The notes below the pieces were generated by a model. It did not search any database. It worked only from the letters and a program-made list of their open reading frames with translations, and had not been told where the DNA came from. The position numbers and the translations under genes were made by a program. Source: Candidatus Bathyarchaeota archaeon (GTDB lineage: Archaea; Thermoproteota; Bathyarchaeia; 40CM-2-53-6). Taken from it: 64,000 nucleotides of DNA. Positions 20,719-44,206 of the stretch are shown piece after piece (positions within the stretch are counted from its first letter, which is position 1; every line of letters starts with the position of its first letter). Location: NCBI GenBank assembly GCA_963726255.1, contig CAVSBL010000002.1:1-64000 (forward strand), written 5' to 3'.

Positions 20719-20855
20719 GGCTCACTCCACGTCCTGCGACGCAAGCGAAACTAGGCTGAAAAGCTGTCTGGCGTGGGTCGTTCACGAAACTTGATATTTG
20801 ATTCGTTAACCGAGAGTTAACCCTAAATTTCCGTTTCTTAAGGGCTTGCATGAGG

Positions 20856-20948: not shown

Positions 20949-21005
20949 TAAGTGAACTCAAGTTACGCAGACTGTTTCTGCAACCCATCCAGAGCGTTCC
21001 ATGTT

Positions 21006-27530: not shown

Positions 27531-27663
27531 GAGAAATTCCTACAATGTGCAGTGGAACATGTGTGGAAAGAAAAGGTGTTCGATTCCCAGCCGGTTTTCA
27601 TGAGCCGCCACCGTCGTAGCTTGGAAAGGTTGATATGAGAACAGACCTGCACCGTGACGCGAT

Positions 27664-27801
27664 GGCCGCCGTAGCGTAGAGGAGTCCTGAACTCCGCGAA
27701 GCTTGGTAGCGTATAGGCCCTACTTGGGGTACACGGCTGTGGACCCTACGGGGTGGGTTCAAAGCGTCGCTAAAACCGGCGTGAAAGTCCCACCGGCGGC
27801 C
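27664..27801 (+). tRNA. tRNA-His(GTG) with 3 introns, G-1 encoded
   Basis: Removing 27680-27701 (15/16), 27717-27734 (29/30) and 27764-27787 (59/60) gives a cloverleaf: GCCGCCG/CGGCGGC, TAGGG-CTGTGGA-CCCTA, GTGGG-TTCAAAT-CCCAC, C73. Confidence 0.88.
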
Positions 27802-27857
27802 CTCAACACTCTATTTTTGAACTGGGACACGTAGATTCCTACTTCATAGATTGAAGG

Positions 27858-28103
27858 ATGGTGGCTAGGATTATTGATCGGATGCTGAGGCAAGGCGGAC
27901 CTGGTACCTGTGAAATCTGCGAGAAAAAACCTGCGACGAGGAAGGCGAAGTTCACTGCACAATCCCTTCAATCCTCCTCAATGCCGTTGTTTGACGAAGA
28001 GTCGCTTGTCGCCAGCGAATTTGAGAAAAGGGTATGCGAAGATTGCCTTGCTTCATTGCAGAATGCGAAGAACGTAGCGAACCTTACCTTTGAACGATTA
28101 TGA
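27858..28103 (+). CDS. small zinc-finger protein
   Basis: CEICEKKPA...VCEDC. Confidence 0.65.
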   Translation: MVARIIDRMLRQGGPGTCEICEKKPATRKAKFTAQSLQSSSMPLFDEESLVASEFEKRVCEDCLASLQNAKNVANLTFERL

Positions 28104-28226
28104 ACGAGTATAGTTCCAACACTCGACACCGCGTTTGGGCGTCGCTGGAGAGGAATAATTGCAGATGTCGTATACGCGTATGGCGCGGAAGGGTTAAAGG
28201 AGCGAGTCAGAAACTGTTGGCAAGGT

Positions 28227-28342
28227 GGGCCGGTAGTTCAGCCTGGTATACCAAGCGTTTGCTGGGCCGAAGAACGTCCGGTTTGCAAGTTCTTCACCAA
28301 GCATCCGGAAGGTCGCGGGTCCAAATCCCGCCCGGTCCACCA
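28227..28342 (+). tRNA. tRNA-Ala(TGC) with 2 introns
   Basis: G3:U70 pair, CCA encoded; introns 28250-28271 (21/22) and 28288-28303 (37/38) with BHB motifs. Confidence 0.9.
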
Positions 28343-28469
28343 AATGCTGTTTTCTCCCGGCGCATCGCGAAACATGCCGGGTCCTAGAACCTGGTTCAGT
28401 GAGAAAACGTGTGGGGGTTGTGGTGACCCACACTCCCCATGTGGGTCGCCCTATTGAGTTTCGTTATAT

Positions 28470-28616
28470 CTAGAGAATTGCTACCGGTGGAGGCGAATAC
28501 TGGACGGGTACAGGGAACCTGAATCTCACGTAGTTAACCGGGTAGAACAGCACGGGTGGTTGAGGTTGGCATTCTATCGGAACCATTATCGGTGCAGCGA
28601 AGTAGATGAATTCCAT
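28470..28616 (-). CDS. 48-aa Pro/Val/aromatic-rich peptide
   Basis: MEFIYFAAPIMVPIECQPQPPVLFYPVNYVRFRFPVPVQYSPPPVAIL*; TTATAA about 20-25 nt upstream; resembles 46527..46754. Confidence 0.5.
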   Translation of the reverse strand: MEFIYFAAPIMVPIECQPQPPVLFYPVNYVRFRFPVPVQYSPPPVAIL

Positions 28617-28875
28617 TGGCTTTACCTTTGGCTTATAAGCCGCCCGGAGCTGTCATAAACGTTTCCTGTCTGGCGTGAAATTTGATGGATGTTCATCTTT
28701 ACCTTCCCTCATTAAATCAACACCTTGGTGTCAACGAGTTTTGACTACATGATGCTTGCTTAACCTAAGCTCAGGCTGCCGTAGCGTGTGATTCGAGCAT
28801 GTTTTTGCCTACTGAGAAAGTGGCAATTGTTATGTGATTCGTAAGCCGAGGCTTAGTGTTTACTGAGGTTTCAGA

Positions 28876-29763
28876 ATGGAACCCGCACCTGTCCTCATGC
28901 CGGCTCCCGCGGTTATCGAAGACAGATCAAAGCCGGTAGTGATTAGGCCCCCAGAGGTTAACGGAGCCCATGACTACGCCGTTATTGGCTACTTGCTTAT
29001 CTTTCTCTATTCGCTTCCCTGGTTCATTATCGTTCTCACAATAGGCGCGTACGGAATCCTCGCTTCCCCCTACCTTTCATTCCCGGTAATACTGCCGCCC
29101 ACTCTACCCGCGTGGCTGACGGCGATACCGCTGATCGGGCCGCTTCTGTTAATCCTAACATTTCCAGGAGTAGGGCTGCCCGCGTCTTGGTTCGTTTACT
29201 TGGGGGTCGGCGTGCTAGGTCTACTTGTAGCCATAATCTTCCTCGGAATCGTCTACTTCTCAACCGTACGTAACATCAACAGAGGGCGCTACGAGAAAGC
29301 GCGTGGCGCATCATTATTCTGGGCAGTGCTGTTTACCATCCCAGTATTCTTGGTGTTCGCCGGGCCCTTGTCCTTCTACCCAACAGTTCTGCTAATCCTT
29401 CCTGCGTTCTTCTACTACATGACCTATGGCCGACTTGGCGAAGTCATAGCAAAATACGGCCCAGTGGCAGTATTGGGTGAAGCAGTACCAGGTGTAGGCA
29501 TGGCCGGTCCGCCAGGTCCTCCGCCTGTTCCAATGCCGGGTCCGATGGGTATGCCCATGTCGTCGATGGGTGGTCCGATGGGCGGGCCAGCAATGGGTGG
29601 CCTGCCAATGGGCGGTCCAATGCCTCCTATGCCGACCGGTATGCCAAGCCAACCTGCCGCGGCGCCAAGAACTCCGGTCTGCCCTACGTGCGGTAGGGAC
29701 CTATACTACGCAGCAAACCACAGACGGTGGTACTGCCAAACCTGCGACCAGCCTGGCCGCTGA
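28876..29763 (+). CDS. membrane protein with Pro/Met/Gly-rich linker and C-terminal zinc ribbon
   Basis: About 5 TM helices, GGPM repeats, CPTC...WYCQTC. Confidence 0.75.
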   Translation: MEPAPVLMPAPAVIEDRSKPVVIRPPEVNGAHDYAVIGYLLIFLYSLPWFIIVLTIGAYGILASPYLSFPVILPPTLPAWLTAIPLIGPLLLILTFPGVGLPASWFVYLGVGVLGLLVAIIFLGIVYFSTVRNINRGRYEKARGASLFWAVLFTIPVFLVFAGPLSFYPTVLLILPAFFYYMTYGRLGEVIAKYGPVAVLGEAVPGVGMAGPPGPPPVPMPGPMGMPMSSMGGPMGGPAMGGLPMGGPMPPMPTGMPSQPAAAPRTPVCPTCGRDLYYAANHRRWYCQTCDQPGR

Positions 29764-29764
29764 C

Positions 29765-30622
29765 CTATCCAAACATCTTCAATTGCTTTACGCGTCCCAG
29801 GTAGGTGCCATCGAGTAGGTGCACCTCCGCATCGTCCATGTCTACCGCCCCAGACCTTAGAACGGGCCCAAGCCGCTCGCCCGCATGCGTTTCCTCAATC
29901 TTCCGAGAATTCACCGGCCGCCCGCCAAGGAAGTCATTGAACGGCGGGACGAATACGCACCGTGTTGTAGCCAGTTTCACTCGAAACTTCTCCTCCAATA
30001 CTTCTTCAAGGTTCCCTTTAGGTTGAATTCCTGCGGCCTTCAAAGTTCCGCGAACAAGTTTCTTCGGATCGCAAGGGGCCGTAACCCAAGCGGGTTTCGT
30101 CAACCTGTAACCCAAGGCGTCGCGTAAAGTAACCGCAGGGTGTAGGTGCCCGAGAATCAGAGTCTCGCATCCAAGTATTTCAGGGGACGGCCACGCGTGT
30201 CCGTGCAACAACCCAAATCGGTTCCAGAGCGCGAGGCCCGTGGACGGGAGAATTTCAACTTTAGATGGAGTCAGAGGTTCTAGATTACCGTCATGGTTTC
30301 CCAAGATAACCTGAACAGCGGGAACCAGCTTGAGCAACGCCTCAAAGAAATCTGGGACATCACGCCATTCTTCCAGCTCAGCGCCGGTTACGCTATGCTT
30401 CACGTCGCCAAGCATGATAATTCTTGAGGGGTGTTCCTTCTCAATTATCGCCTTAAGCCTTTGAAGCATTTTTCCGGTTTGCGAGGGAATGTGAATGCCC
30501 TGCTGGGAAAGCGTAACTTCCCAGCCTATGTGAAGGTCGCCGAGAACCACAACCCTCTCGCCCCGTCGTCTCAGCAGAAGGGCGGGCTCCGACCCGATCG
30601 GTTTGAGAGCATTCAAGGACAA
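29765..30622 (-). CDS. calcineurin-like metallophosphoesterase
   Basis: DLH, GDVKH, GNHD, HGH, GHLHP. Confidence 0.9.
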   Translation of the reverse strand: MSLNALKPIGSEPALLLRRRGERVVVLGDLHIGWEVTLSQQGIHIPSQTGKMLQRLKAIIEKEHPSRIIMLGDVKHSVTGAELEEWRDVPDFFEALLKLVPAVQVILGNHDGNLEPLTPSKVEILPSTGLALWNRFGLLHGHAWPSPEILGCETLILGHLHPAVTLRDALGYRLTKPAWVTAPCDPKKLVRGTLKAAGIQPKGNLEEVLEEKFRVKLATTRCVFVPPFNDFLGGRPVNSRKIEETHAGERLGPVLRSGAVDMDDAEVHLLDGTYLGRVKQLKMFG

Positions 30623-30716
30623 CCTTTCCCGCTAAGATGAGATGGTAACCGGGTTATGTGTTCATCCCATGCTGAACAAAAGGTTAGATACTTCCCGTGG
30701 ATTTTCACCAACCAGT

Positions 30717-30831
30717 AGCCCGGTGGTGTAGTGGACAGTTCAAACCCGCAGAAGCATAGAGGGCTTTGGACCCTCCGACGGGAGTTCGAATGGCATTAAG
30801 AAAATGCCCGAGCCTCTCCCCCGGGCTACCA
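30717..30831 (+). tRNA. tRNA-Gln(TTG) with 2 introns
   Basis: AGCCCGG/CCGGGCT-A-CCA, GAGGG-CTTTGGA-CCCTC; introns 30737-30751 (D-loop) and 30791-30814 (59/60). Confidence 0.9.
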
Positions 30832-30842
30832 TACCGCTCCGC

Positions 30843-31157
30843 TCACTTCATTTTTAGTTCTATGCCGACGGTTCGCTTGATTAGTTGAGCGAGCGCATCC
30901 ACCTGAGCCGTAGGGCCACCCTTAGCTGGTATCGAGACAACTAACGGGAATTCCTTCCTCGTCCTTTCGAGGATTGGTTGGATCCATTGCATTACGGGCT
31001 CGGTGACCATGATAAGTGAAATTGTTTCATCGGAGTAAATGGTCCTGAATACCTTCTCAGCATCCTCCCTATCCTTCACGGCATAACTTTTCTTTATTCC
31101 GGTGACTCTGAAGTACGCGGACGCGGCTCGGTCCGCGAGCAGCGCTATCTGTCCCAA
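30843..31157 (-). CDS. A/V-type ATP synthase subunit F
   Basis: IALLAD..F...GI, PLVVSIP, LIKRTVGIEL. Confidence 0.8.
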   Translation of the reverse strand: MGQIALLADRAASAYFRVTGIKKSYAVKDREDAEKVFRTIYSDETISLIMVTEPVMQWIQPILERTRKEFPLVVSIPAKGGPTAQVDALAQLIKRTVGIELKMK

Positions 31158-31181
31158 AGCTCATCGCACTGTCCGATTGCT

Positions 31182-31649
31182 TCAAAATTGCGCTAGAACA
31201 TCTTCCCGCTCCATCACATGCCCACAGAAGTAGCAGCGGAGGCGAATTGGTTCCCGACGGTCAACGCCGAACCGAGGCTCCACAGGTTCCCTAGAATTAG
31301 ATATGCAGGACGGGTTGTCGCATTTTATGATTCCTCGAATAGTGGGTGGGAGTTCCACGACTTTTTTCGACGCAACATCGTAATTTCGTATTATGTTGAT
31401 GGTCGCGTTGGGGGCAATCAGCGCGATCTTATCGACCTCGCCGGGCCTAAGCTCCCTGTTCTGTATTTTCACAATATCCTTATCGTGTAACTGCTTACTC
31501 TCGACGTTCAGGGCGACGCTCACCATCTCACCATCCTTTCCATTGATTCCGAGAATTTTGAGTACGTCGAGGGCGAAACCAGGTGTAATGTGGTCAATGA
31601 CCGTTCCGTCTTTGATCTTCCTAACGTAGAGTTCTTGACGCGCTTGCAA
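31182..31649 (-). CDS. pyrI: aspartate carbamoyltransferase regulatory chain
   Basis: GTVIDHI, KDIVKI, CDNPSCIS, CYFC. Confidence 0.96.
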   Translation of the reverse strand: MQARQELYVRKIKDGTVIDHITPGFALDVLKILGINGKDGEMVSVALNVESKQLHDKDIVKIQNRELRPGEVDKIALIAPNATINIIRNYDVASKKVVELPPTIRGIIKCDNPSCISNSREPVEPRFGVDRREPIRLRCYFCGHVMEREDVLAQF

Positions 31650-31757
31650 ACCTATCCAAATACCACAATCTTTGAGAACCGTTATTTAACCCTAAGAAAC
31701 GTCACAGCCCACTGTCCGCTTGGAGGCATTAAAGACAGTTTGGCTTGAGCGGAGCGT

Positions 31758-32228
31758 TCATTTTCGTTTTATTGGGACTTGCACTTCACAGTTGGCCCAC
31801 GCGCGGGCACTGGTCCACGGGCTTCCAGTGTAAACTTCCCTCGATGGCCCTAATTGCTTGAAGGGCCTGTATTGCAGCCAGCCTTCAATCCCATGGTAGA
31901 CCACCTGCTCTGCTACCTTATCAGGGTTGAATGTCACGCTTACCACTCTTCGTTTCGGTAATTTCATTATGCCTATCTTGCCCTCAGGCTTCGCCTTACT
32001 CTTGAGCTCCAGGCATGCTGCGGAACGGCGTTTACTGTCAGGTTTCTTTCCCCATTCGTCGATGAAGAACACTATCCACTTTCCCGTTCTGATTCGCCGT
32101 TTCTTAGCCCATCTCGTGAGTTGGTTGAATTCCCTGCGCCACATGTTCGGGCCGGTATATCCACCAATACGGATTATGTAAGCGACTTTGTAGCTCGGCG
32201 CAACTTTGATGCTGAAATCAACCGCCAT
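31758..32228 (-). CDS. GyrI-like small-molecule-binding protein
   Basis: VAYI...G.Y, Y..I..W, GPSREVY...EVQVP. Confidence 0.75.
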   Translation of the reverse strand: MAVDFSIKVAPSYKVAYIIRIGGYTGPNMWRREFNQLTRWAKKRRIRTGKWIVFFIDEWGKKPDSKRRSAACLELKSKAKPEGKIGIMKLPKRRVVSVTFNPDKVAEQVVYHGIEGWLQYRPFKQLGPSREVYTGSPWTSARAWANCEVQVPIKRK

Positions 32229-32623
32229 TAAGGCTCACTTTGACGCTATCCATGAGTTCTATGTTCTCACTAATCTTGCTTTCGAGACGTTGATTTTTCA
32301 TCGGTTGAAGTTGACCAGTCGCAGGGTGGCCATGGCCTGGTCACGTTGAGTTTCAAGGTCCACTTGACGCACTGTTGTCTTGTGTCTTGCGTATGGTCCC
32401 GTCGATTGTAGTGCATTTGGCTCGGGTATTATTCGGATTGCAATTGTTTTCATAGTGAAGGCCAAGGAATCGATCATCTTCGCCCAGTTGGGGATTCTTT
32501 CACTTAACATTCTATTCATCTCCGAAGCGATCGTTATCGGATCTCCAATTAAAGGGCAGGGCACGTTTCAGGATTACAATTTGCACTCACAAGATGTGAG
32601 TTCTTCCGATGGCAAGAGTCGGT

Positions 32624-32956
32624 TTAATCTAAGAAGTCCATCGGTGTACTGGGCCGTCGAGGTTCTGTGTCTAGGTATGTGATTAGATCCTGTATCTTCT
32701 TGTAGGCCTCGAGGTATTCCATCCCCTTTCTCGTAATGCCATAGTACTGGCGCTGGTTAAGGTTCCCTTGCAAGGGTAATCCCAGGACGTGGATCCTGAT
32801 CAATTCATATCGACTCAGAGTTTCAAGCATTGGCTTCATTCTATCGATGGGTAGTCCAGCGCCGTAGGAGAGCCTTGTAACTTGACAACCGTCTGGGTGG
32901 CGTTTCAGGTACTCGAGAATATCGGCGTAGATATCTAGCCGAGAACGCTTCTTCAA
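32624..32956 (-). CDS. winged-helix transcriptional regulator
   Basis: RSRLDIYADIL...TRL.Y...YGITRKG.EYL. Confidence 0.8.
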   Translation of the reverse strand: MKKRSRLDIYADILEYLKRHPDGCQVTRLSYGAGLPIDRMKPMLETLSRYELIRIHVLGLPLQGNLNQRQYYGITRKGMEYLEAYKKIQDLITYLDTEPRRPSTPMDFLD

Positions 32957-33120
32957 GAACTCTCCTCAGCGATCCTCGAGGCTCCTTACAATCTTAAGTT
33001 GAATTATAGGTTGCGGCTGGGTGAGGTTGCATTGTTCTCTGGCCATTCCACTGCGATGCATGGCCAGGGGATTCTAACTGAGCGCTAAACGCACACGCTG
33101 GAAGAGGAGGTGCTTATTAA

Positions 33121-34074
<954 letters not shown>

Positions 34075-34137
34075 CGTTAGTGTTACCTAAGGTAACGCTT
34101 ATATGATGATTTTCCCCAACATATTACCTGAACGAAG

Positions 34138-34890
34138 ATGCGTCTAGAATTACTCCCATCATCCCGAAAACGCCGAGTCCTACCTAGGCACGTAGTGAAC
34201 TACACGGCGTTTCGTGAAGACTTTCGCATGCAAGAGGACGAGAGCGAACTTCACCTCCTAGAGAAATTCCACGCCGCGAGGGTTCTTTCCAAGAACGGAG
34301 ATGTTGATACCTTTGTCGAACCAGTTCTTTACGACTCCGAGAAACATTCGCACAGGTTCACCTCAGACCTGGTCGGAATTGAAGGCGCTATCTTAACGGC
34401 GGTTTTCTGTGAAACAAAGCAACCGAGCGAATCGCTGCTGAAGGATCTGGGGGTAGTAGATGAGGCGGAGAACTCAAAAGCCGTTGTCGTTTACCCGTCG
34501 AAAGTGAACTCTAACCAAATAAGTTCCTACTTCCCCGAGGCCGTTGACTCAGGCAAATTCGTAATCGAGCATCTCAATTGGCGGGACCGAGGGCTGGAGC
34601 GGGCTTTTCGAGAAGCACTGGAACTCATGGACTTGCTCTGCAACGAAACACGTGTGAAAATGCTTCTACCGCTGTTGGAGCATCCGCAGGGGAAGAAGAA
34701 TTTCAGGGAAGGAATAAACCCTAAGCTCATCTATGAAAATGTCCCCTTGCTTAGAGCACATAAACTCATAGACGAGCTATCGGATGACCTGTACGACCTT
34801 ACTCCGATTGGCAAAACGATCCTCGGCGAGTACCTGGCATTCGTCGAGAAGGTCAGGGATCTGCTCGAAAGAGCGGACAAAGAAGAATAG
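34138..34890 (+). CDS. hypothetical protein with C-terminal wHTH
   Basis: NETRVKML...YDLTPIGK. Confidence 0.6.
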   Translation: MRLELLPSSRKRRVLPRHVVNYTAFREDFRMQEDESELHLLEKFHAARVLSKNGDVDTFVEPVLYDSEKHSHRFTSDLVGIEGAILTAVFCETKQPSESLLKDLGVVDEAENSKAVVVYPSKVNSNQISSYFPEAVDSGKFVIEHLNWRDRGLERAFREALELMDLLCNETRVKMLLPLLEHPQGKKNFREGINPKLIYENVPLLRAHKLIDELSDDLYDLTPIGKTILGEYLAFVEKVRDLLERADKEE

Positions 34891-34916
34891 GCCTGGGGCT
34901 GAGAAAGACGGGTACA

Positions 34917-35396
34917 ATGGTTGAACGCCTAGACGCTTCCCGTGACTTTGGCGACGTTTTCGAGGTTGTCAAGAAATCTGCGGAGCATTCCCTGGGGCGT
35001 CGTAGAGCAGGCCTAATGCTGTATCTGGCTAAGCTGCCCAGGCACATTGGTGCGTTTCACACCATGGGGACAAACGGCATCGTCATGAATAGAACTATCC
35101 TCGACATGGTGACGCATGGCGCACGGTCACTTCGCGAAATCAATTCCTACGTGTATTCAATCCTGCTACACGAGTATTTGCATGCGCTCGGCTACGTGGA
35201 AGAACAGGACGTGCGAAAGCTGGTGTACGATGTCTCATTGCAAACATTCGGCCCAGAACACCCCGCCACCCAAATAGCCTCAAGAGGTCCAGGCGCCATG
35301 TTCCCCGAAATCTCACTTCATGATGCGCCAACAGAGACGCCTGACATTGAAGTAATTCCAGACCTCGAGAGAAGCAGCCAGCGGTACATCAGCTAG
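34917..35396 (+). CDS. small zincin-like metalloprotein
   Basis: LHEYLHALG (HExxH). Confidence 0.7.
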   Translation: MVERLDASRDFGDVFEVVKKSAEHSLGRRRAGLMLYLAKLPRHIGAFHTMGTNGIVMNRTILDMVTHGARSLREINSYVYSILLHEYLHALGYVEEQDVRKLVYDVSLQTFGPEHPATQIASRGPGAMFPEISLHDAPTETPDIEVIPDLERSSQRYIS

Positions 35397-37704
35397 CTAC
35401 CGTGTAAGATATTCGTCTATCCACAATTCTCTTCTTTGCTTCAGGCCAAAGCGTGAACGGCAGCAGACCGTACGATGAACGACCTAGGTGCGTGGTCCTG
35501 TCTGAGCCGCAATTGCTGCATTTCGGTGTGATTCCAAGGTCGGTGTGGTTGCAGACGCTGCAGGCTGAATAGTTCGCTGTATACGTCAAGAACTTGCAAC
35601 CATATTCAAACGCTCTCTCGGTGAGCTTCAAAAGAGCGGGCGCCGTGGAATCAGGGGAGATACAGACCACGCTGAGATGTCCGCCAGGCGTCGCTGATTG
35701 AAACCCCGATTCCATATCCAACCTGCTGTCGATAGTCATTTTCGTTGTCAAAGGAATGGTCGGCAAGTCGGTGTAGTACAAGAGGCCCCTAGATCCGTCT
35801 GCTACAATAACCGCCCTCCCATATTGCTCCATGTCCAATTCCGCGAGCCTACCCGCGGCTTCGTCCCCGGGCCGTTGTGAAACCAGAATGCGCAGCTCCG
35901 ATTCATCTGAGGCGGACTTTAGCAGGTTCGAAGCCTCTTGCAGGATTCTTAGGCCGAAATCAGCTGCCGCTTTGTCCCGTTCCATCCTGAGTCCGGTATG
36001 GGCGTCGACGGCTTCGTTCAGGCCAATAAATGAGAGATTGTAGGAAGAGTTCTTTTCGTAAAAGTAGGGTGAGGCGCCACCCTCCCCAGCCAAGAGAGGG
36101 AGCAGCGGTTGTTTCAGACGTTCGCTGACGAACTTTTTCTTGACTTTGAAACCTTCCACAGTTAACGCGACAGCCTCGCTAAGTAATGCTAGGAATTTTT
36201 CGTCGTTCTTCTTGGCCTCGTACGCTATTCGAGGAAGATTTATGAAAATAGTGTCCATGCTACCTGTTCTGATACAGTCCGCGTCCCAATGATTCGTCCA
36301 CTCATCGCCTAACCTAAGCCCCGTAGCCGAGTAACTGCTCTTTTCTTCGTCGCCAATTAGTTCGAAGAAGGGGATGCTGCGTTCTGCGGCCAGTTGGTGG
36401 GCTTTCTCAAGAATCAGTCTACCCTGCGCGTCACTCAGAGCCTTGCGCCTAACTTTTACTACAAGATGGGGCAAAACCGGCGGGCGTGACTGTGACATTT
36501 TCTGAAAAGCTTCGATTGTCGCACCGGCCAGCCGACTGCTTTCATCCGAGAAATCTGAATATTTGCCGGCGCTTTTGCCACCTGGACCGATCGCATTCTC
36601 CTGCGAAAGGAACGCTGGCATCGCCAAGTCAACTGAGACTGATATCCCTGCTAGAGGAGTGCTTGAGGGGATATCTTTCCGCAATGAAGTGAGGAAGTAG
36701 TAGATGCCGTTAGAAATGTCCTCCGCCGATCTTCCTTGGATGTATGGGGAGAGGAAAATGTTGAAGAATTCAAGCGTCTGCTCTCCTGAGACCTCGCCGG
36801 CCCCGAGTTCCAATACTTGGCGGACCAGTGCAAGCGCCGCTTCGAAAGTGTCGGGTGGTGATATTCCCGGGAGACTGTTCTTTAGGAAGTAACGGATGTC
36901 GTGAACAACTTCGTTTGGGGAAAGAATCCAGTTTTCCAAGTTAGCTATGTGAATCTCGCCCGAAAGGTGCGCATCCGCGAGTTTGTGAGGTAGGCAGTTG
37001 AGCAGAACATATTCCGAGAGAACCGACCTCGCCGACGAACGTTGAACGTAACCAGCGCTAAGCTGCTTCTCGCCCGCAGTTTTGATGAGTTGGGCCACAT
37101 CGTAAACTGGCATTCCAAGCCTTGTGAGCTTGTGGCGGTACTCCTCCAGTTTCTTCTCAATCAAAATCGCATTGACGAATTCGCGAATTAGCGGCGCAGT
37201 AAGGTAAGTCGTCTTTAATCTGACGAGCCTATCCTCAGCCTCGGCTGCTATCTCGTCTGCGATTTCTTGTGGGACGCCCGCTTCAACTACGAGTGACCTC
37301 GCGATCTTGTTCCTGTGGAATTCCTCTATTGCAAGCCTTGAAGATCTCACGTAGAGTTTGCCGCGCTTGACATTAACGTACTCGTCCAAGTCTCGAGCGA
37401 AGGATACGATCATTCGGCCGAGTTCAGTGACCTCGTACCGCTTTGTCTTCTTTTCAAGGGTCACTAGGCCTATGTCGGTTAGGCTTCGGAGATGATAGAC
37501 AAATTTGCCAGCGTCCCGCACAGGGTCAAGTTTGAGCTGGAACATTATTTCCGTATACTGGAGGGGGCCTTTGGTTGATAGAAGTCGTAAAATTTGTAGC
37601 CTTACGGGGGCAGACGCGGCGTCGAAAATGCCGGCGCCGACTCTCTCCGATGAACGAAGCAAGTGATTACCGCCTAGAAGATGGCTCGCAACCACCATAA
37701 GCAT
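35389..37704 (-). CDS. ArsR-type HTH + ATP-cone-like + class III ribonucleotide reductase-like (NrdD) protein, probably non-catalytic
   Basis: YHLRSL HTH; TAPLIREFVN; DAHLSGEIHI, INLPRIAY, FIGLNEAV, PGGH, CSVC/CSNC; catalytic motifs are altered. Confidence 0.85.
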   Translation of the reverse strand: MLMVVASHLLGGNHLLRSSERVGAGIFDAASAPVRLQILRLLSTKGPLQYTEIMFQLKLDPVRDAGKFVYHLRSLTDIGLVTLEKKTKRYEVTELGRMIVSFARDLDEYVNVKRGKLYVRSSRLAIEEFHRNKIARSLVVEAGVPQEIADEIAAEAEDRLVRLKTTYLTAPLIREFVNAILIEKKLEEYRHKLTRLGMPVYDVAQLIKTAGEKQLSAGYVQRSSARSVLSEYVLLNCLPHKLADAHLSGEIHIANLENWILSPNEVVHDIRYFLKNSLPGISPPDTFEAALALVRQVLELGAGEVSGEQTLEFFNIFLSPYIQGRSAEDISNGIYYFLTSLRKDIPSSTPLAGISVSVDLAMPAFLSQENAIGPGGKSAGKYSDFSDESSRLAGATIEAFQKMSQSRPPVLPHLVVKVRRKALSDAQGRLILEKAHQLAAERSIPFFELIGDEEKSSYSATGLRLGDEWTNHWDADCIRTGSMDTIFINLPRIAYEAKKNDEKFLALLSEAVALTVEGFKVKKKFVSERLKQPLLPLLAGEGGASPYFYEKNSSYNLSFIGLNEAVDAHTGLRMERDKAAADFGLRILQEASNLLKSASDESELRILVSQRPGDEAAGRLAELDMEQYGRAVIVADGSRGLLYYTDLPTIPLTTKMTIDSRLDMESGFQSATPGGHLSVVCISPDSTAPALLKLTERAFEYGCKFLTYTANYSACSVCNHTDLGITPKCSNCGSDRTTHLGRSSYGLLPFTLWPEAKKRIVDRRISYTVAS

Positions 37705-37855
37705 GCGCTGACGTTTAAAAAATTGTAGTTACCGCTATACCCCCATTATGGGGTTCAGAAATTCCCCATTCACAGCAATTGAGAATCTTTATTTTGGTTC
37801 GGCATGCGAGGAAGCGCCTCACAATGTAGGTGTTACGCGAGTGGATGAAGTGCGA

Positions 37856-38356
37856 ATGCGGGGAGCGGATTACAGTACCCTGGCGAAACTTGAAGAGGCC
37901 TTCGAACGAAAGGACCTTTCATTCTTCAAAACGTTCCTGCAAAACTCAAAGGGGCTCCCCCTCCTACTCCGAGTTCACGCAGTTTGCATGCTCGAGCACA
38001 TTGGAAACGAGGAAATGGTAGAGCCATTGTGCAAGGTCCTTGCGGAAGACCCTAGTCCCCTCACACGGCACGAAGCTGCGTTCACCCTTGGCCAGTTGGG
38101 TCACAGCTCAGCCGTGCCGGCATTGGTAGAGGCGATGCAACATGACGAGAGCCCAATCGTTCGACATGAGTCGGCCGTAGCACTGAGCTCCATAGGCGAC
38201 GATCGTGCAGTTCCTGATCTGAAGAAAGCAATCGAGGATAGCGATGAGGACGTCAGCAATTCAGCACTGATTGCTTTCGAGTATCTAGACTACTTACACC
38301 GAAGAAGAGAAAATGCTTCCGATAGGTTCGCGGTGAAACCGAAGATTAGGCTGTGA
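37856..38356 (+). CDS. HEAT-repeat protein resembling one half of deoxyhypusine hydroxylase
   Basis: RHEAAFTLGQL and VRHESAVAL His-Glu motifs; start approximate (ORF track gives 37748). Confidence 0.75.
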   Translation: MRGADYSTLAKLEEAFERKDLSFFKTFLQNSKGLPLLLRVHAVCMLEHIGNEEMVEPLCKVLAEDPSPLTRHEAAFTLGQLGHSSAVPALVEAMQHDESPIVRHESAVALSSIGDDRAVPDLKKAIEDSDEDVSNSALIAFEYLDYLHRRRENASDRFAVKPKIRL

Positions 38357-38392
38357 AGCCTTTTAGCTAGTGCCGCGTCCCTACTGGGCTTA

Positions 38393-38567
38393 GGGGCGGT
38401 GGTCCAGGCCACGAGTCTACCCATCGTGGGGACAACTTGGTCTAAGATAGCATCCACTTGCCTTAAAACCGGTCTCGGGACCTAAAAAATGCCGAACAGC
38501 GAGTACACCGGTGAGCGAGGGTTCAAAATGACCTCCCATGGTCAGGATATTCCCTCCCGCCCCACCA
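38393..38567 (+). tRNA. tRNA-Pro(CGG) with 4 introns
   Basis: Introns 38408-38435 (15/16), 38449-38467 (25/26), 38480-38505 (37/38), 38528-38550 (59/60); spliced product is a 79-nt cloverleaf with CCA. Confidence 0.85.
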
Positions 38568-38624
38568 AACGATCCTTGCTCTTCACGCGAGCATTTTAGC
38601 GATATCGTATCGGTGTCAATTCGC

Positions 38625-39044
38625 CTACTTTCGTTCTAAAAGTTCTATCCAGATTCCATTTGGATCTTTGATGTACGCTTCTGTCCATCCGATTTCCGAT
38701 CCGATCGCATATGGTTCGACGACAACGTCGACGCCTCGTCGTTTCAGCTCTTTGACGGCACCTTCCAGATCTTGAACATCGAAGGCTATGTGGTCGAGGT
38801 CTTCACCGTTAACGTACGCCGAATTGAATGGGCTGTCTTCTTCGTAATGGTTGAGTTCTAGAACTTGTCCCGAGCTTGGGCTCTTGAGTGTAACCACACT
38901 GCCTTTGGTTGGTGTCATCTTCTGAAGAGGTTCCGCGATGATCATCCCTAGTACGTCCGTGTAGAACTTCAGTGATTCTTCCATGTTTTTCACTCGAATT
39001 CCGGTATAAGTGAAACGAAATCCAAAGGACATAGGCGATCGCAC
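38625..39044 (-). CDS. VOC / glyoxalase I family protein (paralog of 7643..8020)
   Basis: GIRVKN..FY, LELN, DHIAFDV, DPNGIWIE. Confidence 0.9.
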   Translation of the reverse strand: MRSPMSFGFRFTYTGIRVKNMEESLKFYTDVLGMIIAEPLQKMTPTKGSVVTLKSPSSGQVLELNHYEEDSPFNSAYVNGEDLDHIAFDVQDLEGAVKELKRRGVDVVVEPYAIGSEIGWTEAYIKDPNGIWIELLERK

Positions 39045-39318
39045 TCAATAGTTCATGGATATGCGTTAAAGGCTTAAGGCGATTGTTCTGGTGGGACCAG
39101 AAATCGTGTATTCAGAACACCTCAAAATGAAGCCAACTGGAATCAATTGGCTTGGTGCACCATGAAGCTCCCTCCCGCCCCACCATACCATTACGATGAT
39201 ACCAGTCCCGTTGCGATAAACTCAGCAATTTCTCTGCAGGAGTCATCCTCGATGATACAATCACGGTGAATAATGGTTTTGTTTCCGGAATGTCCGCGGT
39301 CATCAAACGGGATTTGGA

Positions 39319-40107
39319 TTGATGAAAGTACTGGTCGCCCTGCTGTTATTGTCGACGTTATCGTTCCCAATCGGTGTCAACGCTCTTGCGACGCCGCAGG
39401 CTCAGGTTCAGGAGCCTGCTTTGTTTCTCTCATCATTGAACGCAACGCGGCCTATGGGCTACTATGCTGGGAGTCTTGTGTCCTCCTTGAACCATGCAGG
39501 ATACAACGTTACATACCTGGCTGACGACGCCGTTACAATCAACCTTCTGTTGACTAGGATGAAGAATTACAGTGTCGTAGTCTGGCGCACGGACAGCTTC
39601 ACCCAGAAGAACGCAACATATTGGTATGTCGGCGAGAAACCCAGCGATGCGGCTGAACAGAGGTACGGTTCGGATTTTGCTGCGGGTCGGATAACAACTA
39701 GTACGGGCATGGTCGCAGTTAGTAAAGACTTCTTCACAAATCACTTCGGGCCTTATGCCCTGCAAGGGATCAAACTGCTGATCTTTGTGTCGAGTCATGG
39801 TAATGAATTAGCGCCGATTTTTCTTGCAGCAGGGGTGACGTCAGTAGTTTTCTCTAGCGGAGCCATCACACTTCAATTCGGCCTGGTGGATGACTTAACT
39901 GCCCAACTGGTCGGGTTCCTGACTCAGGGTGAGACTGTTTACAATGCCGTGTACGATACAATTTCTCCATTCAACCAGGGAGAAAACCTGAAAGACCCCC
40001 TCGATTCAACGTTCGGAATAATCTTCTGGTACCTCGGCGACGGTACCGCTACGATAGCGCCCACAATTCATTCAGTTCCTTCCGCACGACTTCCCAGGCT
40101 ACCCTGA
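39319..40107 (+). CDS. secreted hypothetical protein
   Basis: N-terminal signal peptide, alpha/beta-like body. Confidence 0.65.
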   Translation: MMKVLVALLLLSTLSFPIGVNALATPQAQVQEPALFLSSLNATRPMGYYAGSLVSSLNHAGYNVTYLADDAVTINLLLTRMKNYSVVVWRTDSFTQKNATYWYVGEKPSDAAEQRYGSDFAAGRITTSTGMVAVSKDFFTNHFGPYALQGIKLLIFVSSHGNELAPIFLAAGVTSVVFSSGAITLQFGLVDDLTAQLVGFLTQGETVYNAVYDTISPFNQGENLKDPLDSTFGIIFWYLGDGTATIAPTIHSVPSARLPRLP

Positions 40108-40232
40108 ATCATTCGTATTCGTATCGGGTTAGACTATTTCTAGTGGAGCGGAAGCTAACAGCATCCAAGCGCTGAACTTGCTACATGTCGAAAACTACCC
40201 ATTGCGACAGCATTGCCAAAGTCGGGCCCTGG

Positions 40233-40985
40233 TCACTTCTCGTATCCCGCATGCATGAATGTGTGCGGCGCGCCAAAGGATGGGATAAAGATGTCCTCAT
40301 ATCGAACATTAGAGAGGTACCGCCTGCTCGCACTTAATGCAGCATCTCTAAACCGCCGATTGTAAGCTAGCTCGACCGATGACCCGACGTATTGACTACA
40401 GCGTCCTCTGCATTTTTCCTTGATGTCAGCGTATAGTTGGTTAAGTGTCTTCAAATTGCTCTTAATTCCAAAAGGCTTCTCGGTAAGGTCGATTATGGTT
40501 GCATCAAACTCTTCGCTCGTGGAATAAAGAAACCTGAAGGCATCGCCTATCAAGATTCTAACCCTCCGGTCTCCGAAGGCTCGGCCTACGCCCTTGATGT
40601 ATTTCTTACAACACTCGACAAGCAGGGGGTCGATTTCGACGACAGTGACGTGCTCGATTGTCGGAGAGTCGAGTAGTGCTAGCAAGGTCTGTCCGCTACC
40701 GCCCCCAAGCACAAGGACTTCGGCGCAGCTATTTCTCTTGGCAGGGCCACAGAGGGCTTTGTTGAAGATTCGCGAATCATAGGCAGTATGCTGAACATTA
40801 CCGTCAAGAAACAACATTCTACCATAGGCATCGTTGTCGATTATGTCGATTTCTTGGTATTTTGACCGTCCTGAAAAGTAGAATTTCTTGGCATGGTATG
40901 CCAGATGTAATCCGGGGTAGGGTTCGTACACGATGTATTCAGATTTCGGAAAGCACACTTTGCGGCCGTTCGACATATGCGTCAT
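40233..40985 (-). CDS. spermidine synthase-like protein (divergent)
   Basis: SKYQEI, GRMLFLDG.VQ, VLVLGGGSG, VEID, IPSF. Confidence 0.8.
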   Translation of the reverse strand: MTHMSNGRKVCFPKSEYIVYEPYPGLHLAYHAKKFYFSGRSKYQEIDIIDNDAYGRMLFLDGNVQHTAYDSRIFNKALCGPAKRNSCAEVLVLGGGSGQTLLALLDSPTIEHVTVVEIDPLLVECCKKYIKGVGRAFGDRRVRILIGDAFRFLYSTSEEFDATIIDLTEKPFGIKSNLKTLNQLYADIKEKCRGRCSQYVGSSVELAYNRRFRDAALSASRRYLSNVRYEDIFIPSFGAPHTFMHAGYEK

Positions 40986-41036
40986 GAGCTAGCTCAAGAA
41001 TAATGTATAATAGACCTCCGTAGCGCATTCGAACTA

Positions 41037-41822
41037 ATGCGCCGACCGCTCTACCGTCAACTTGTCTCTTACTACGAGCTCATCGAGGGTCGGGACTGGA
41101 AGAGCGAGGTCGGGCTCATCACTTCAATTCTGCGAGATCACGGTTCCAAATCCTTAGTCGACTTAGGATGTGGAACTGGATACCACGTGAGAGCGCTAAC
41201 GAAACTGGGCTTCGAGGCGACGGGAATTGACATCTCGAAAGAGAATATTCAATTCGCCAGAAGAAAAGCCGCTGAGGAGAAAATACACTCGCGCTTTGTC
41301 GTTGGTAGCTATTATGATTATCACCACCATGCGAGGTTTGACGCCGCTGTATGCCTGAACTGGTCTATCCCGGTCAGAAATGACGAGGTGAAACGCTTTC
41401 TTGATAACACGTACGCCCTGCTTCGACCTGGGGGGTTGTTGATTCTTGATTATGAAAGAGTATCGCAGATCGTATGGTCTGATGTCGGAAAGGCAATAGT
41501 ACAGTCATGGGAGCAGAAGAACCAGCTTATTGTAAGAGTCTCCCTTGGCAAGGTAGCCTCAAACGTGTTGTATTCAAGGGACGTTTACATTATCTACCCA
41601 AGGCTTCAGAAACTGATAGTGCCGAGCGAAAGGTCAAGGTACCAAGCCGATGAAAGAAATAGCCGTGTTCAGGTGTATGTCGATAGTTCATGTGTGCGTT
41701 TCTTCTCGATGTCAGAGATCAGAGACTTCGCACGCAGATCTGGGTTCAGGGTCATTAGCAATTTCGTTTTGCCGAGGAATGATTACAAGCGAAACTATGT
41801 TGTCCTAGAGAGGGTCAACTGA
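41037..41822 (+). CDS. class I SAM-dependent methyltransferase
   Basis: VDLGCGTG, GIDIS, LRPGG. Confidence 0.88.
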   Translation: MRRPLYRQLVSYYELIEGRDWKSEVGLITSILRDHGSKSLVDLGCGTGYHVRALTKLGFEATGIDISKENIQFARRKAAEEKIHSRFVVGSYYDYHHHARFDAAVCLNWSIPVRNDEVKRFLDNTYALLRPGGLLILDYERVSQIVWSDVGKAIVQSWEQKNQLIVRVSLGKVASNVLYSRDVYIIYPRLQKLIVPSERSRYQADERNSRVQVYVDSSCVRFFSMSEIRDFARRSGFRVISNFVLPRNDYKRNYVVLERVN

Positions 41823-41891
41823 CCCACATGTTCCCCCGTTCGCGTTGTGAAGGCTTTGGTGTGACCCGATGATTGGACGATTTCCTTTAGC

Positions 41892-42569
41892 CTAATGAAG
41901 GCGTGTTCCGCACCGGTCGCAGAAGTTTGCGCCAGGCTGGTTGGGAGCGCCGCAGTTAGCGCAGGCGACCGGTCCAAAAGGCGTTGGTTGTGGGGAAGCT
42001 TGTGGGTAGTAGGGTTGTTGGACGCTGGGTTGGGGATAAGGTGATTGAGTTGGAGGCACGTACGGCTGACCTACCGGCGGCGGGACCGGCGGGCGCATCA
42101 CAGCATATCCGCCCGTTCGCCCGAAGAATGCCCGAACGTTTCCCGAATTCAAGTAGACTAGTATGATGAGGTAAAACACGATTGTGCACACTATGCTCGC
42201 AAGGCTCTCGTAAAGCCCACTTCCTTCCACGAAACCTACTGTGATAGTCATGATTCCAAAGATGATTCCTAAGATGATCCCGATGATTGCGCCGATCAGG
42301 GTGAGGGTCCAAGCCCAGCCCTTGCCAGTCCAAAGGCCGTAAGCCATTATGAAAGAAAATATCCCCAAGGCGATGACAACAAAATCCAGCAAGAACAACA
42401 GGGTTACGAGAGCCCCACCGATTAGGGCGCCAGCGAGGACTGCCAAGATGAGCAGTACCGCTCCGATAGTTATGTCTCCGAGACCGCTTAGGATTTGTAG
42501 TATGGTGAGAACGGCTACCCCCACAGGCCGTGGGGGACGGGTCATGTTGGCCGCGTACAACGGATTCAT
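41892..42569 (-). CDS. membrane protein with Pro/Gln linker and zinc ribbon
   Basis: RPVGVAVL, GLWTGKGWAW, CANC...FCDRCG. Confidence 0.8.
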   Translation of the reverse strand: MNPLYAANMTRPPRPVGVAVLTILQILSGLGDITIGAVLLILAVLAGALIGGALVTLLFLLDFVVIALGIFSFIMAYGLWTGKGWAWTLTLIGAIIGIILGIIFGIMTITVGFVEGSGLYESLASIVCTIVFYLIILVYLNSGNVRAFFGRTGGYAVMRPPVPPPVGQPYVPPTQSPYPQPSVQQPYYPQASPQPTPFGPVACANCGAPNQPGANFCDRCGTRLH

Positions 42570-42666
42570 CCTCCTGTCTCAATTGGACTGAAGGGTATTA
42601 TGAAACCTCCGGAAATGCGTTTCCGGCCTTAGCACGCCTACATAGTGCGAGGCTAATAACTTAGAT

Positions 42667-42814
42667 TGGTAGCGGGGGGTGGATGTTCGGGCTTTTCGCC
42701 TTTCGAACCACCGGTTGAGGAGTTTTTTCGACTCAATCTCAGGGTTTCTCGCCAGGATATGAGCCCTCCGCACGGGAAGGTTCTGCGGGTTAAACCTGGC
42801 TACCCCACCCCGCT
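42667..42814 (-). tRNA. initiator tRNA-Met(CAT) with 4 introns
   Basis: A1:U72, three G-C pairs in anticodon stem, CCA; introns 42766-42782 (29/30), 42746-42757 (37/38), 42714-42735 (47/48), 42684-42701 (59/60). Confidence 0.88.
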
Positions 42815-42910
42815 AGCAGGAAACCAAAATCGGGTCGCGGTCTTTTAGGTTTACTTGTGGTTGTCTGACAGGTGTTGGTGTTGTGTTTTGATTGGTGACC
42901 TTCATTGTTT

Positions 42911-44206
42911 CTAGCTTGCTTGGGGGATTTCGTGCACTGAGCCGATGGGGCTTACCAAGATCAGGAGCACAGGGAGCAGGGAGATTAATCCGCCGATGAT
43001 GATGGTCTGCGTAATTCCAAACTCTGTACCGAAGATTCCTCCGATGAAAGCCCCAACTGGCAGCGCTCCCCAGACTATTGCACGCATGGTGGCGTTCATC
43101 CGGCCCTGAAGCCTGTCGGGCACAATCGCCTGACGAAGGCTGATCTGGGTGATATTGTAGATCGTTATTCCAACCCCAGAGACCATCCAGAGCGCCGCTA
43201 ACACTGGTACTGAGGGACCGTACATAGCAAGGGGGATTGCAAGGAGCCCGAAGCCGACAAGAGATAAGGCGGTGGCAAGGGTAGGAGCGAGCCCGAATCT
43301 CTGCCCGATCTTAGGCGCGATGATTGCACCAATCAAAGAACCCACGCTTCCGATTCCGAGTACGACGCCCGCCAATCCAGGGGACAGTCTCAACTCGTTG
43401 TACATGAAGAGAAAGAACACGGCTGAGAAGATGCTGCTTCCGAGATTCAAAGTTGTGGTCGTCGCTGCGAGGCTTCGGAGCCATGGATTGTGAAAGATTA
43501 CTTCAGCGCCTTCCCTGACCTCCCTAACGAAGTTGCGGTCTGCTTTTGAACTGTATGTGTTTTCAGTCTTCTTGATTGAGAAGATGGCTAGGGCGGCGAA
43601 CAACGTGGTGAGTGCGTCCGCTGTGATAGCTATGGCGGCTCCAGTGAGTTGTATGAGGAAACCGGCCAGCGCAGGGCCAGCGATCTGTGAGGTTGATTCG
43701 CTGGTTGTGAGCTTGGAGTTTCCTTCCACTAAATTCTCCCTATCAACCAGCGTTGGTAGATAGGACTGGTATGCGACTTCGAAAAACACAGTGGATATTC
43801 CCATAACCGCGGCAACGGCGAACAAATGGTAGAGGTTGAGTTTGCCTAGGAGGAACGCGATTGGAATTGTTCCAAGGGTGATGACCTGTACAATATTCGC
43901 CAGAACCATCATTGGGCGCCGCGGCCACCTGTCACCCATCACACCCACGAAGACCCCTAGAATCGGAAAGGCAAGGTAGCCCAAGGCGTTTAGAACTCCA
44001 ATATCGAAAGCTCCAGCCTTTAGAGCGAAAATGGCGATAGTCGGCAACGCCAAGTAGGTTATTTGACCTCCAAACCACTCGACAGTTTCGCCAACCCATA
44101 AACGCATGAAATCCCTATGGTGCCACAGCCGTCCTGACAAAGCAAACTTCAAACTAGCATCCTCTTCCATCCCCCAGGACGGTCGCTCTTTTGCCGTGAC
44201 GAACAC
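42911..44206 (-). CDS. MFS transporter
   Basis: About 12 TM helices, GVMGDRWPRR, LQGRMNA. Confidence 0.9.
   Translation of the reverse strand: MFVTAKERPSWGMEEDASLKFALSGRLWHHRDFMRLWVGETVEWFGGQITYLALPTIAIFALKAGAFDIGVLNALGYLAFPILGVFVGVMGDRWPRRPMMVLANIVQVITLGTIPIAFLLGKLNLYHLFAVAAVMGISTVFFEVAYQSYLPTLVDRENLVEGNSKLTTSESTSQIAGPALAGFLIQLTGAAIAITADALTTLFAALAIFSIKKTENTYSSKADRNFVREVREGAEVIFHNPWLRSLAATTTTLNLGSSIFSAVFFLFMYNELRLSPGLAGVVLGIGSVGSLIGAIIAPKIGQRFGLAPTLATALSLVGFGLLAIPLAMYGPSVPVLAALWMVSGVGITIYNITQISLRQAIVPDRLQGRMNATMRAIVWGALPVGAFIGGIFGTEFGITQTIIIGGLISLLPVLLILVSPIGSVHEIPQAS

Follow-up and report, generated by a model that had tools for sequence, protein, structure and literature searches.

Interrupted tRNA genes in the window

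The window analysed here is the first 64,000 nt of a 2.36 Mb contig in a Bathyarchaeia genome assembly of 2.42 Mb (GCA_963726255.1), which is 98.5% complete with an estimated contamination of 9.3%. Five tRNA genes were found in the window, His-GUG, Ala-UGC, Gln-UUG and Pro-CGG on the plus strand and the initiator Met-CAU on the minus strand. The numbers of intervening sequences are three, two, two, four and four, respectively, which gives 15 introns of 12-28 nt and splits each gene into three to five exons. Three of the 15 introns are located at the canonical position 37/38, and four are located at 59/60. We conclude that these are very probably five functional single-copy archaeal tRNA genes, each carrying two to four protein-spliced introns whose motif is of the bulge-helix-bulge type (BHB).

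In a first look at the intergenic stretches, acceptor-stem pairs and T-arm halves were seen at five places, and the fifth gene was initiator-like only on the minus strand. A first-pass annotation of the same DNA had described five genes with 15 intervening sequences between 27664 and 42814, three of them at 37/38 and four at 59/60, and had stated that every tRNA gene of the window is multiply interrupted. A BHB-aware search for spliced cloverleafs, combined with hand checks, recovered all of these genes and introns at their places and reproduced every count. The location of the initiator gene on the minus strand, from 42814 down to 42667, goes beyond that annotation.

Three in-house methods were used for the parsing, namely depth-first removal of BHB candidates with a cloverleaf score, a hand parse of the initiator gene, and a dynamic programme in which the cloverleaf is aligned to the DNA with jumps, the cost of a jump being lower when a BHB is present. 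The three methods were finally concordant. A depth-first removal judged by ARAGORN was too lenient and allowed many alternative parses; it was replaced by the in-house cloverleaf score and then by the dynamic programme.

The geometry of the BHB was set by hand on the canonical intron of tRNA-Ala. For an intron s..e, the central helix is formed by s-6..s-3 with e-5..e-2, the bulges are s-2..s and e-1..e+1, the inner helix starts from s+1:e-6, and the outer helix starts from s-7:e+2. In the following list, triplets give the base pairs of the central, inner and outer helices in this order, iMet denotes the initiator tRNA, and the null fraction refers to a comparison with 3000 random genomic segments per intron, which had the same length as the intron and were tried in five placements each to offset the choice of boundary.

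27664..27801, plus strand: tRNA-His(GUG), encoded G-1 at 27664, position 1 at 27665, discriminator C73 at 27801, no encoded CCA; three introns, 0 mismatches
27680..27701, plus strand: His intron 1, 22 nt, 15/16 in the D-loop; relaxed BHB, central helix 3/4 bp, inner 5 bp, outer 1; null fraction 0.024
27717..27734, plus strand: His intron 2, 18 nt, 29/30 in the anticodon stem; strict hBHBh' (4/3/5); null fraction 0.000
27764..27787, plus strand: His intron 3, 24 nt, 59/60 in the T-loop; strict hBHBh' (4/5/6); null fraction 0.0003
28227..28342, plus strand: tRNA-Ala(UGC), encoded CCA; two introns, 0 mismatches; Rfam RF00005 at 46.2 bits, with the two insertions
28250..28271, plus strand: Ala intron 1, 22 nt, D-loop, 21/22 (4/3/0) by the dynamic programme; null fraction 0.036
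28288..28303, plus strand: Ala intron 2, 16 nt, canonical 37/38; strict hBHBh' (4/2/5), hand-checked; null fraction 0.0007
30717..30831, plus strand: tRNA-Gln(UUG), encoded CCA; two introns, 0 mismatches
30736..30752, plus strand: Gln intron 1, 17 nt (or 30737-30751, 15 nt), D-loop at about 20/21; weakest BHB (3/0/4); null fraction 0.064
30791..30814, plus strand: Gln intron 2, 24 nt, 59/60; strict hBHBh' (4/6/5); null fraction 0.000
38393..38567, plus strand: tRNA-Pro(CGG), encoded CCA; four introns, five exons, 1 mismatch (C13.A22)
38408..38435, plus strand: Pro intron 1, 28 nt, 15/16; BHB 4/6/1; null fraction 0.004
38449..38467, plus strand: Pro intron 2, 19 nt, 25/26; HBh' type (4/3/0); null fraction 0.041
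38480..38505, plus strand: Pro intron 3, 26 nt, canonical 37/38; BHB 4/1/6; null fraction 0.003
38528..38550, plus strand: Pro intron 4, 23 nt, 59/60; central helix 2/4 bp, inner 5, outer 5; null fraction 0.005
42667..42814, minus strand: initiator tRNA-Met(CAU), encoded CCA; four introns, 0 mismatches; hand parse and dynamic programme
42766..42782, minus strand: iMet intron 1, 17 nt, 29/30; BHB 4/2/1; null fraction 0.037
42746..42757, minus strand: iMet intron 2, 12 nt, canonical 37/38; minimal BHB (3/1/4); null fraction 0.010
42714..42735, minus strand: iMet intron 3, 22 nt, 47/48 in the variable loop; strict hBHBh' (4/4/2); null fraction 0.001
42684..42701, minus strand: iMet intron 4, 18 nt, 59/60; strict hBHBh' (4/3/5); null fraction 0.0003

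After removal of the introns, no mismatch remains among the 21 stem pairs of a gene in four cases, and a single one remains in tRNA-Pro. The conserved U8, A14, G18G19, U33 and T-loop are present in the spliced products of all five genes, except for C55 in tRNA-Ala. The identity marks are also found, which are G-1/C73 in tRNA-His and, in the initiator, A1:U72 with three G:C pairs closing the anticodon stem.

In the T-loop of tRNA-Ala(UGC), at 28309-28315, positions 54-56 read U-C-C, where C replaces the near-universal U55. Two of the three orthologs share this C55, as do the genes for Gly-UCC and Gly-CCC in this genome.

The exons of each gene lie collinear on one strand within 112-176 nt, and split or permuted tRNA genes were therefore rejected as candidates. 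Such genes in Nanoarchaeum, Caldivirga and Thermofilum use the same BHB and EndA machinery to build a tRNA out of its pieces (PMC3218864), whereas the tRNAs of the window need neither trans-splicing nor permutation. Group I and group II self-splicing introns were rejected because the segments are only 12-28 nt long and show no ribozyme core in Rfam, which gave no ribozyme family in 26500-44000 even at E values up to 10. No further tRNA gene was found in the window by ARAGORN, Rfam and the genome-wide anchor scans; a gene with an interrupted acceptor stem could escape the anchors, but none of the 46 anticodons is left without a gene elsewhere in the genome.

Intron motifs and comparison with chance

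Of the 15 introns, 10 have a complete central helix (4/4 bp), four have 3/4 and one has 2/4. The strict hBHBh' class (4 bp, both flanks at least 2) comprises six introns, and the relaxed class (3-4 central pairs, one flank at least 2) comprises eight; in the remaining one, at 59/60 of tRNA-Pro, the central helix has two pairs and each flank has 5 bp. In several cases, a helix of the tRNA itself serves as the exon half of the motif, namely the D stem at Pro 15/16, the anticodon stem at 37/38 and the T stem at 59/60. In the central helix of Pro intron 1, the 5' strand of the D stem is paired with a conserved GGAC close to the 3' end of the intron. The central helix of Pro intron 4 has 3-4 of the four pairs in 12 of 14 sequences, when the window and its orthologs are counted together.

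The genome-wide scan gave 247 loci anchored on the T-loop motif, T stem and acceptor stem, and 300 anchored on the acceptor stem and NCCA. True tRNA genes scored 62.5-79.5, with the five window genes at 65.5-75, and the best non-tRNA loci reached 52.5 in the T-loop-anchored set and 48.5 in the NCCA-anchored set. Four rows at 53.5-62.0 in the former set are alternative 5' anchors of accepted genes. In the comparison of motifs, 14 of the 15 introns lie above the 95th percentile of the null, where 0.75 is expected, and 10 lie above the 99th. The D-loop intron of tRNA-Gln is the sole intron with a null fraction above 0.05. Chance is excluded by the scan scores, the motif null and the conservation among orthologs described below.

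Several results weigh against the above interpretation of the genes. The motif statistics are partly circular, as the boundaries were picked by a programme that rewards BHB motifs, which mainly concerns the D-loop introns of tRNA-Ala and tRNA-Gln. For introns in stems, anticodon loops and T-loops, the cloverleaf leaves one to four equivalent placements per boundary, but it does not settle the boundaries of these two introns. Weak motifs are present in the Gln D-loop (3/0/4), at Pro 59/60 (2/4 central pairs) and at iMet 37/38, where the intron is only 12 nt long. When the dynamic programme was run free of the motif, random windows gave a median of 48, a 99th percentile of 55 and a maximum of 69.5, and the real genes scored 60-67. 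This motif-free version misplaced boundaries and merged two iMet introns into one, and it was left out of the census.

Such results also bear on an alternative in which some of the 15 segments are mis-delimited, with adjacent introns merged or split, or in which a D-loop insertion is kept as an enlarged loop of the mature tRNA. The D-loop motifs of tRNA-Ala and tRNA-Gln are the weakest or most ambiguous, where the former allows a second placement (28247-28269, at 19/20) in which the central helix has 4 bp and the D stem forms the outer helix, so that its boundary is uncertain by about 3 nt. An Asgard preprint describes D-arm insertions that annotators leave inside 'mature' tRNAs (10.64898/2026.10.13.758758). 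However, the orthologs have invariant flanks around D-loop segments that differ in both sequence and length. A parse of tRNA-Pro with five introns, which the dynamic programme had offered, was rejected since its extra exon is not conserved among orthologs. The merging of iMet introns by the motif-free version is countered by the four-intron parse, which leaves 0 mismatches and a standard initiator anticodon arm in seven of seven sequences. No mature D-loop as large as 24-32 nt is known to us, which also counts against an enlarged loop. Mis-delimitation or a retained loop is thus improbable, and the reading of 15 excised introns is preferred.

Conservation among relatives

Relatives were found via the neighbouring NrdD protein, which gave 29 loci, nearly all of them in metagenome-assembled genomes (MAGs) of Bathyarchaeia or Bathyarchaeota from soil, peat and sediment projects. 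The first-pass annotation had named Thermoproteales and Thermofilum as groups with intron-rich tRNA sets; here the lineage has to be corrected, as the relatives place the window in Bathyarchaeia. The five genes were compared with the NrdD loci by BLAST and then aligned, where only loci covering both gene ends were kept and partial matches were dropped. The resulting 27 orthologs consist of 13 for Pro, six for iMet, four for Gln, three for Ala and one for His, and the neighbouring NrdD is 65-98% identical. The invariant columns, with the window counted, are as follows.

Pro: exon 77/79, intron 46/107
iMet: exon 78/78, intron 39/74
Gln: exon 76/76, intron 20/39
Ala: exon 73/77, intron 19/39
His: exon 77/77, intron 57/64

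When each sequence was parsed alone, the same intron positions were obtained in 7/7 iMet, 5/5 Gln, 2/2 His (ortholog L005) and 12/14 Pro sequences. All 14 Pro sequences have four introns, and the two non-identical parses correspond to a shifted D-arm. Two introns are present in all four Ala sequences, three of which agree, and the fourth shifts the D-loop intron by two positions. The mature sequence is identical in the seven iMet and in the five Gln sequences. Among the orthologs, the intron length ranges over 14-26 nt at Pro 37/38, 19-25 at Pro 25/26, 13-17 at iMet 29/30, 18-23 at iMet 59/60 and 15-17 in the Gln D-loop, and it is 12 nt at iMet 37/38 in all seven sequences. Inner helices are kept despite the change in intron sequence, as at Pro 25/26. 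The conserved positions, together with the variable sequence and length of the introns, indicate that the introns are old in the group and that selection acts on the exons and not on the introns. The exons are subject to strong purifying selection in as many as 14 MAGs, which come from several projects and were assembled independently.

tRNA genes of the whole genome

The census comprises 46 tRNA genes, all located on the 2.36 Mb contig (C2 in the coordinates below), with one gene per expected archaeal anticodon and one ambiguous anticodon reading. It is composed of 45 genes from the anchors and tRNA-Asp(GUC), and the counts were manually corrected for class II tRNAs and two class I genes. Interrupted genes account for 45 of the 46 (98%), with approximately 110 introns, or approximately 2.4 per gene; this total may be off by two or three, as the structures of Gly-CCC (two or three introns) and an Arg gene are ambiguous. 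One gene (Arg-CCG) has no intron, eight have one, 18 have two, 11 have three, seven have four (Pro-CGG, iMet, Pro-GGG, Gln-CUG, Glu-CUC, Lys-UUU and Tyr) and one (Trp) has five. The programme delimited 107 introns with a median length of 22 nt, 29 of which are at 37/38, 12 at 30/31, 11 at 59/60 and seven at 29/30. An all-against-all BLAST of these 107 introns gave one 11-nt match at E <0.01, and no sign of recent intron copying among genes is apparent from this comparison.

The genome-wide BHB-aware scan that the first-pass annotation had proposed was run with the in-house search, and eight genes with four or five introns were obtained. Intron-less copies of the five isoacceptors, which that annotation had named as possible counter-evidence, are absent from the 2.42 Mb genome.

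The tRNA-Asp(GUC) gene (C2:1442099-1441996, minus strand) is interrupted at 68/69, within the 3' acceptor strand, by an intron of 28 nt whose BHB is strict (4/5/2). ARAGORN and Rfam had reported it as intron-less, which was rejected since the acceptor stem pairs only once the 28-nt segment is removed. The maximum of the genome is found in tRNA-Trp(CCA) (C2:267000-266776, minus strand), whose five introns are at 10/11, 28/29, 37/38, 45/46 and 59/60; the 37/38 segment is 61 nt long, has a weak motif and might be compound. The Arg gene at C2:1459292-1459149 has about 70 extra nt, which were parsed as three introns; the programme reads CCG for its anticodon, which is probably CCU. The Gly-CCC gene (C2:500947-500774) has about 100 extra nt, corresponding to two introns by the programme and three by eye (8/9, 15/16 and 45/46). 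When every gene was allowed a long variable arm free of penalty, Met at 144372 and Gly-GCC at 2185881, both of class I, were parsed wrongly, and their earlier parses were kept. The 3' CCA is encoded in 43 of the 46 genes, as read from the gene tails, with His, Ser-GCU and Ala-GGC as exceptions. This wide encoding makes NCCA a useful anchor for interrupted genes.

Detection by standard tools

The first-pass annotation had expected standard annotation to miss these genes, and simple tools do miss them. ARAGORN found 0/5 of the window genes by default and 0/5 with introns allowed, and the Rfam tRNA model found 1/5 (28227-28339, with two large insertions). In the whole genome, ARAGORN without introns gave two clean tRNAs, with one correct gene of 46, and the Rfam model gave 17 loci over the cut-off, or 14 with stricter filters. 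With introns allowed, ARAGORN made 30 genome-wide calls with no window gene among them, and one call inside the nrdD frame (37390-37530) was judged false.

As a phylogenetic proxy, the Rfam tRNA model was applied with E <=0.001 and the stricter filters to genomes at least 90% complete, which counts detectability and not introns. The hits per genome were 10-15 in the family of the window (n=6), 14-30 with a median of 19 in other families of the order (n=13), and 17-51 with a median of 34.5 in other orders of the class (n=52). Fifteen further species of the window's genus, taken at any completeness, gave 8-19 hits. The deficit of recognisable tRNAs is deepest in the window's family; the genomes compared are related and are not independent samples.

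Near-absence of normal tRNAs in the results of ARAGORN and Rfam could also be expected if the genes were decaying pseudogenes or assembly artefacts, with the working tRNAs elsewhere or outside the assembly, and the assembly is MAG-like with an estimated contamination of 9.3%. However, the genome is 98.5% complete with its 46 genes on one contig, every expected anticodon is represented by exactly one gene, with no uninterrupted copy to spare, and the purifying selection on exons extends over up to 14 independently assembled MAGs. Decay or artefact is therefore hardly credible, and the genes are regarded as functional.

Splicing machinery and proposed process

In the genome, PF01974 matches two loci, which are EndA paralogs of 188 aa and 187 aa with 28% identity to each other. 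The 188-aa paralog aligns with the catalytic chain of A. pernix EndA, 3p1z_B, over 179 residues (E 7.7e-41) and keeps Y125, H133, K164, R157 and the C-terminal Trp; in its Crenarchaea-specific loop, the places of K44 and R46 are both taken by Lys. The 187-aa paralog matches M. jannaschii EndA (E 7e-15) and has a gap at the place of the catalytic His, with no His aligned; it matches the NCBIfam beta-subunit models only below their cut-offs. Compared with the A. pernix enzyme (PDB 3P1Z/3AJV), the catalytic residues, the loop Lys and the presence of a second paralog are alike, whereas the Lys at the R46 place and the beta-like paralog falling below the cut-offs are differences. The Crenarchaea-specific loop and K44 confer cleavage of non-canonical and relaxed motifs (PMC3241643).

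The enzyme probably has the (alpha-beta)2 arrangement, and its assembly as a heterotetramer, its activity and its broad specificity are predicted on the basis of the two sequences. The first-pass annotation had linked intron-rich tRNA sets to broad-specificity forms of EndA, and the typing of the subunits agrees with it, giving a putative two-subunit enzyme of alpha and beta, where alpha carries Y125/H133/K164 and the loop Lys. The RtcB ligase is encoded at C2:1172995-1174305 (PF01139, E 8.5e-172) in an open frame of 521 aa.

In the process that we propose, one collinear precursor would be transcribed per gene, and it would have to present two to four BHB motifs. An A/T-rich box lies approximately 25-35 nt upstream of each gene and a T-run lies downstream of four of the five, as read by eye, which suggests that each gene is probably transcribed alone. 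At each intron, the RNA would fold so that both cut sites sit in 3-nt bulges 4 bp apart, and the heterotetrameric (alpha-beta)2 EndA would cut both bulges, where the loop of its catalytic subunit would be the one through which crenarchaeal enzymes tolerate relaxed motifs irrespective of their position. RtcB would then ligate the exons to produce ordinary tRNAs of 72-76 nt. The outer helix of the iMet 37/38 motif is interrupted by the 29/30 intron and increases from four to five pairs after this intron is removed, and some order of excision is thus plausible. The actual excision, its order and the enzyme responsible are what we infer from these features.

A 618-bp segment beside tRNA-Pro and the reason for the introns

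A 618-bp segment following tRNA-Pro(CGG), within 38551-39185, is absent from the 96-98% identical relative L003, in which the tRNA-Pro gene runs directly into the downstream sequence. A direct repeat of 17 nt, which corresponds to the last exon and CCA, flanks the segment (38551-38567 and 39169-39185), which holds a glyoxalase-family gene (38625-39044, minus strand). It also contains a partial second copy of the 3' part of tRNA-Pro at approximately 39113-39185, inside which a different, BHB-compatible intron of the 59/60 type is found; the isolated fragment at 39130-39185 looks like a remnant of duplication and not a half-gene. The segment may be either the footprint of an integration or the result of a deletion between the repeats. 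In the more distant relative L013, a glyoxalase gene is also located beside the tRNA.

These observations touch on the reason for the intron pattern. The idea that split or intron-bearing tRNA genes are protected from integrases was reportedly put forward by Randau and Soll in 2008, and the introduction of an Asgard preprint cites it without examining it (10.64898/2026.10.13.758758). The first-pass annotation had suggested such protection as a possibility. Applied to the present genome, it would mean that the introns shield tRNA genes from the integrases of viruses and plasmids, which use these genes as attachment sites. The age and conserved positions of the introns within the genus are consistent with it, as is the scarcity of recent copying between genes. 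However, the 618-bp indel indicates that rearrangement still occurs at an intron-rich tRNA gene, and neutral accumulation under a permissive EndA accounts for the same data. Integrase protection remains a guess, and a rather unlikely one.

Elsewhere in the window, a TPP (thiamine pyrophosphate) riboswitch of this archaeal genome was matched at full length by RF00059 with 74.8 bits (20851-20960, plus strand).

Comparison with known tRNA intron systems

Multi-intron tRNA genes are classic for Thermoproteales. A maximum of three introns per gene was reportedly given for this order by Sugahara in 2008, and the present genome has eight genes with four or five. As in Pyrobaculum, Thermofilum and Caldivirga, the BHB introns are located at many non-canonical sites, including the D-arm, anticodon stem, variable loop and T-loop, and the EndA is predicted to be of the (alpha-beta)2 type. 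The published figures are approximately 70% of tRNAs with introns in Thermoproteales (quoted in 10.1101/2023.11.21.568159) and 1.54 introns per gene in P. calidifontis (10.64898/2026.10.13.758758), whereas the Bathyarchaeia genome carries a heavier load of 2.4 per gene with 98% of genes interrupted. Intron transposition has been described for Thermoproteales, as cited in the introduction of the latter preprint; in contrast, no intron families common to different genes were seen in the Bathyarchaeia genome. The host is also different in being non-thermophilic, as judged from the peat and soil titles of related records.

A counterpart is found in wetland-soil Asgard archaea (Atabeyarchaeia, Freyarchaeia and Jordiarchaeaceae). 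In three wetland Asgard genomes, 92-95% of tRNA genes are interrupted, more than half have several introns, and many introns are non-canonical (10.1101/2023.11.21.568159). The other preprint gives a mean of 2.20 per gene and a maximum of five intervening sequences in a single gene, and it describes D-arm insertions that annotators miss (10.64898/2026.10.13.758758). The Bathyarchaeia genome resembles these figures with 45 of 46 genes interrupted, approximately 2.4 introns per gene and a maximum of five, and it also represents a soil or peat lineage. Unlike the Asgard archaea, the host belongs to the class Bathyarchaeia of Thermoproteota, and its EndA is of the two-subunit crenarchaeal type. In addition, the window introns are fixed across the sampled relatives, whereas those of Asgard archaea are mostly recent terminal gains. 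The intron load is at or slightly above these published averages, where averages and not per-genome maxima are compared.

No paper on tRNA introns in Bathyarchaeia or Bathyarchaeota was found by a search that reached few subscription journals. The structure described here is a known kind of gene structure with an ordinary archaeal mechanism, at near the highest published density found. Tentatively, with the odds somewhat against it, the Bathyarchaeia family might be a third independent hot-spot of tRNA introns after Thermoproteales and wetland Asgard archaea, with a load at or above the densest printed averages found and with old and fixed introns that point to long-term maintenance and not to ongoing invasion. 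If this is the case, the introns could be maintained, for example, as an integrase barrier or through intron-dependent modification.

For annotation, the missed genes mean that quality checks of MAGs that count tRNAs, as well as inferences on codon usage and decoding, will be wrong for a widespread group of soil and peat archaea. For biochemistry, an essential single-copy initiator that is predicted to need four excisions, together with tRNA-Trp, which would need five, may provide good substrates for studying in which order, and how faithfully, splicing at multiple sites proceeds. In this uncultured archaeon, a member of Bathyarchaeia from soil or peat, interrupted tRNA genes are the rule (45/46). 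For evolution, a third lineage near saturation with an EndA of the crenarchaeal type would help to separate the permission given by the enzyme from the drivers of accumulation, and would allow comparison with Asgard archaea of similar habitats.

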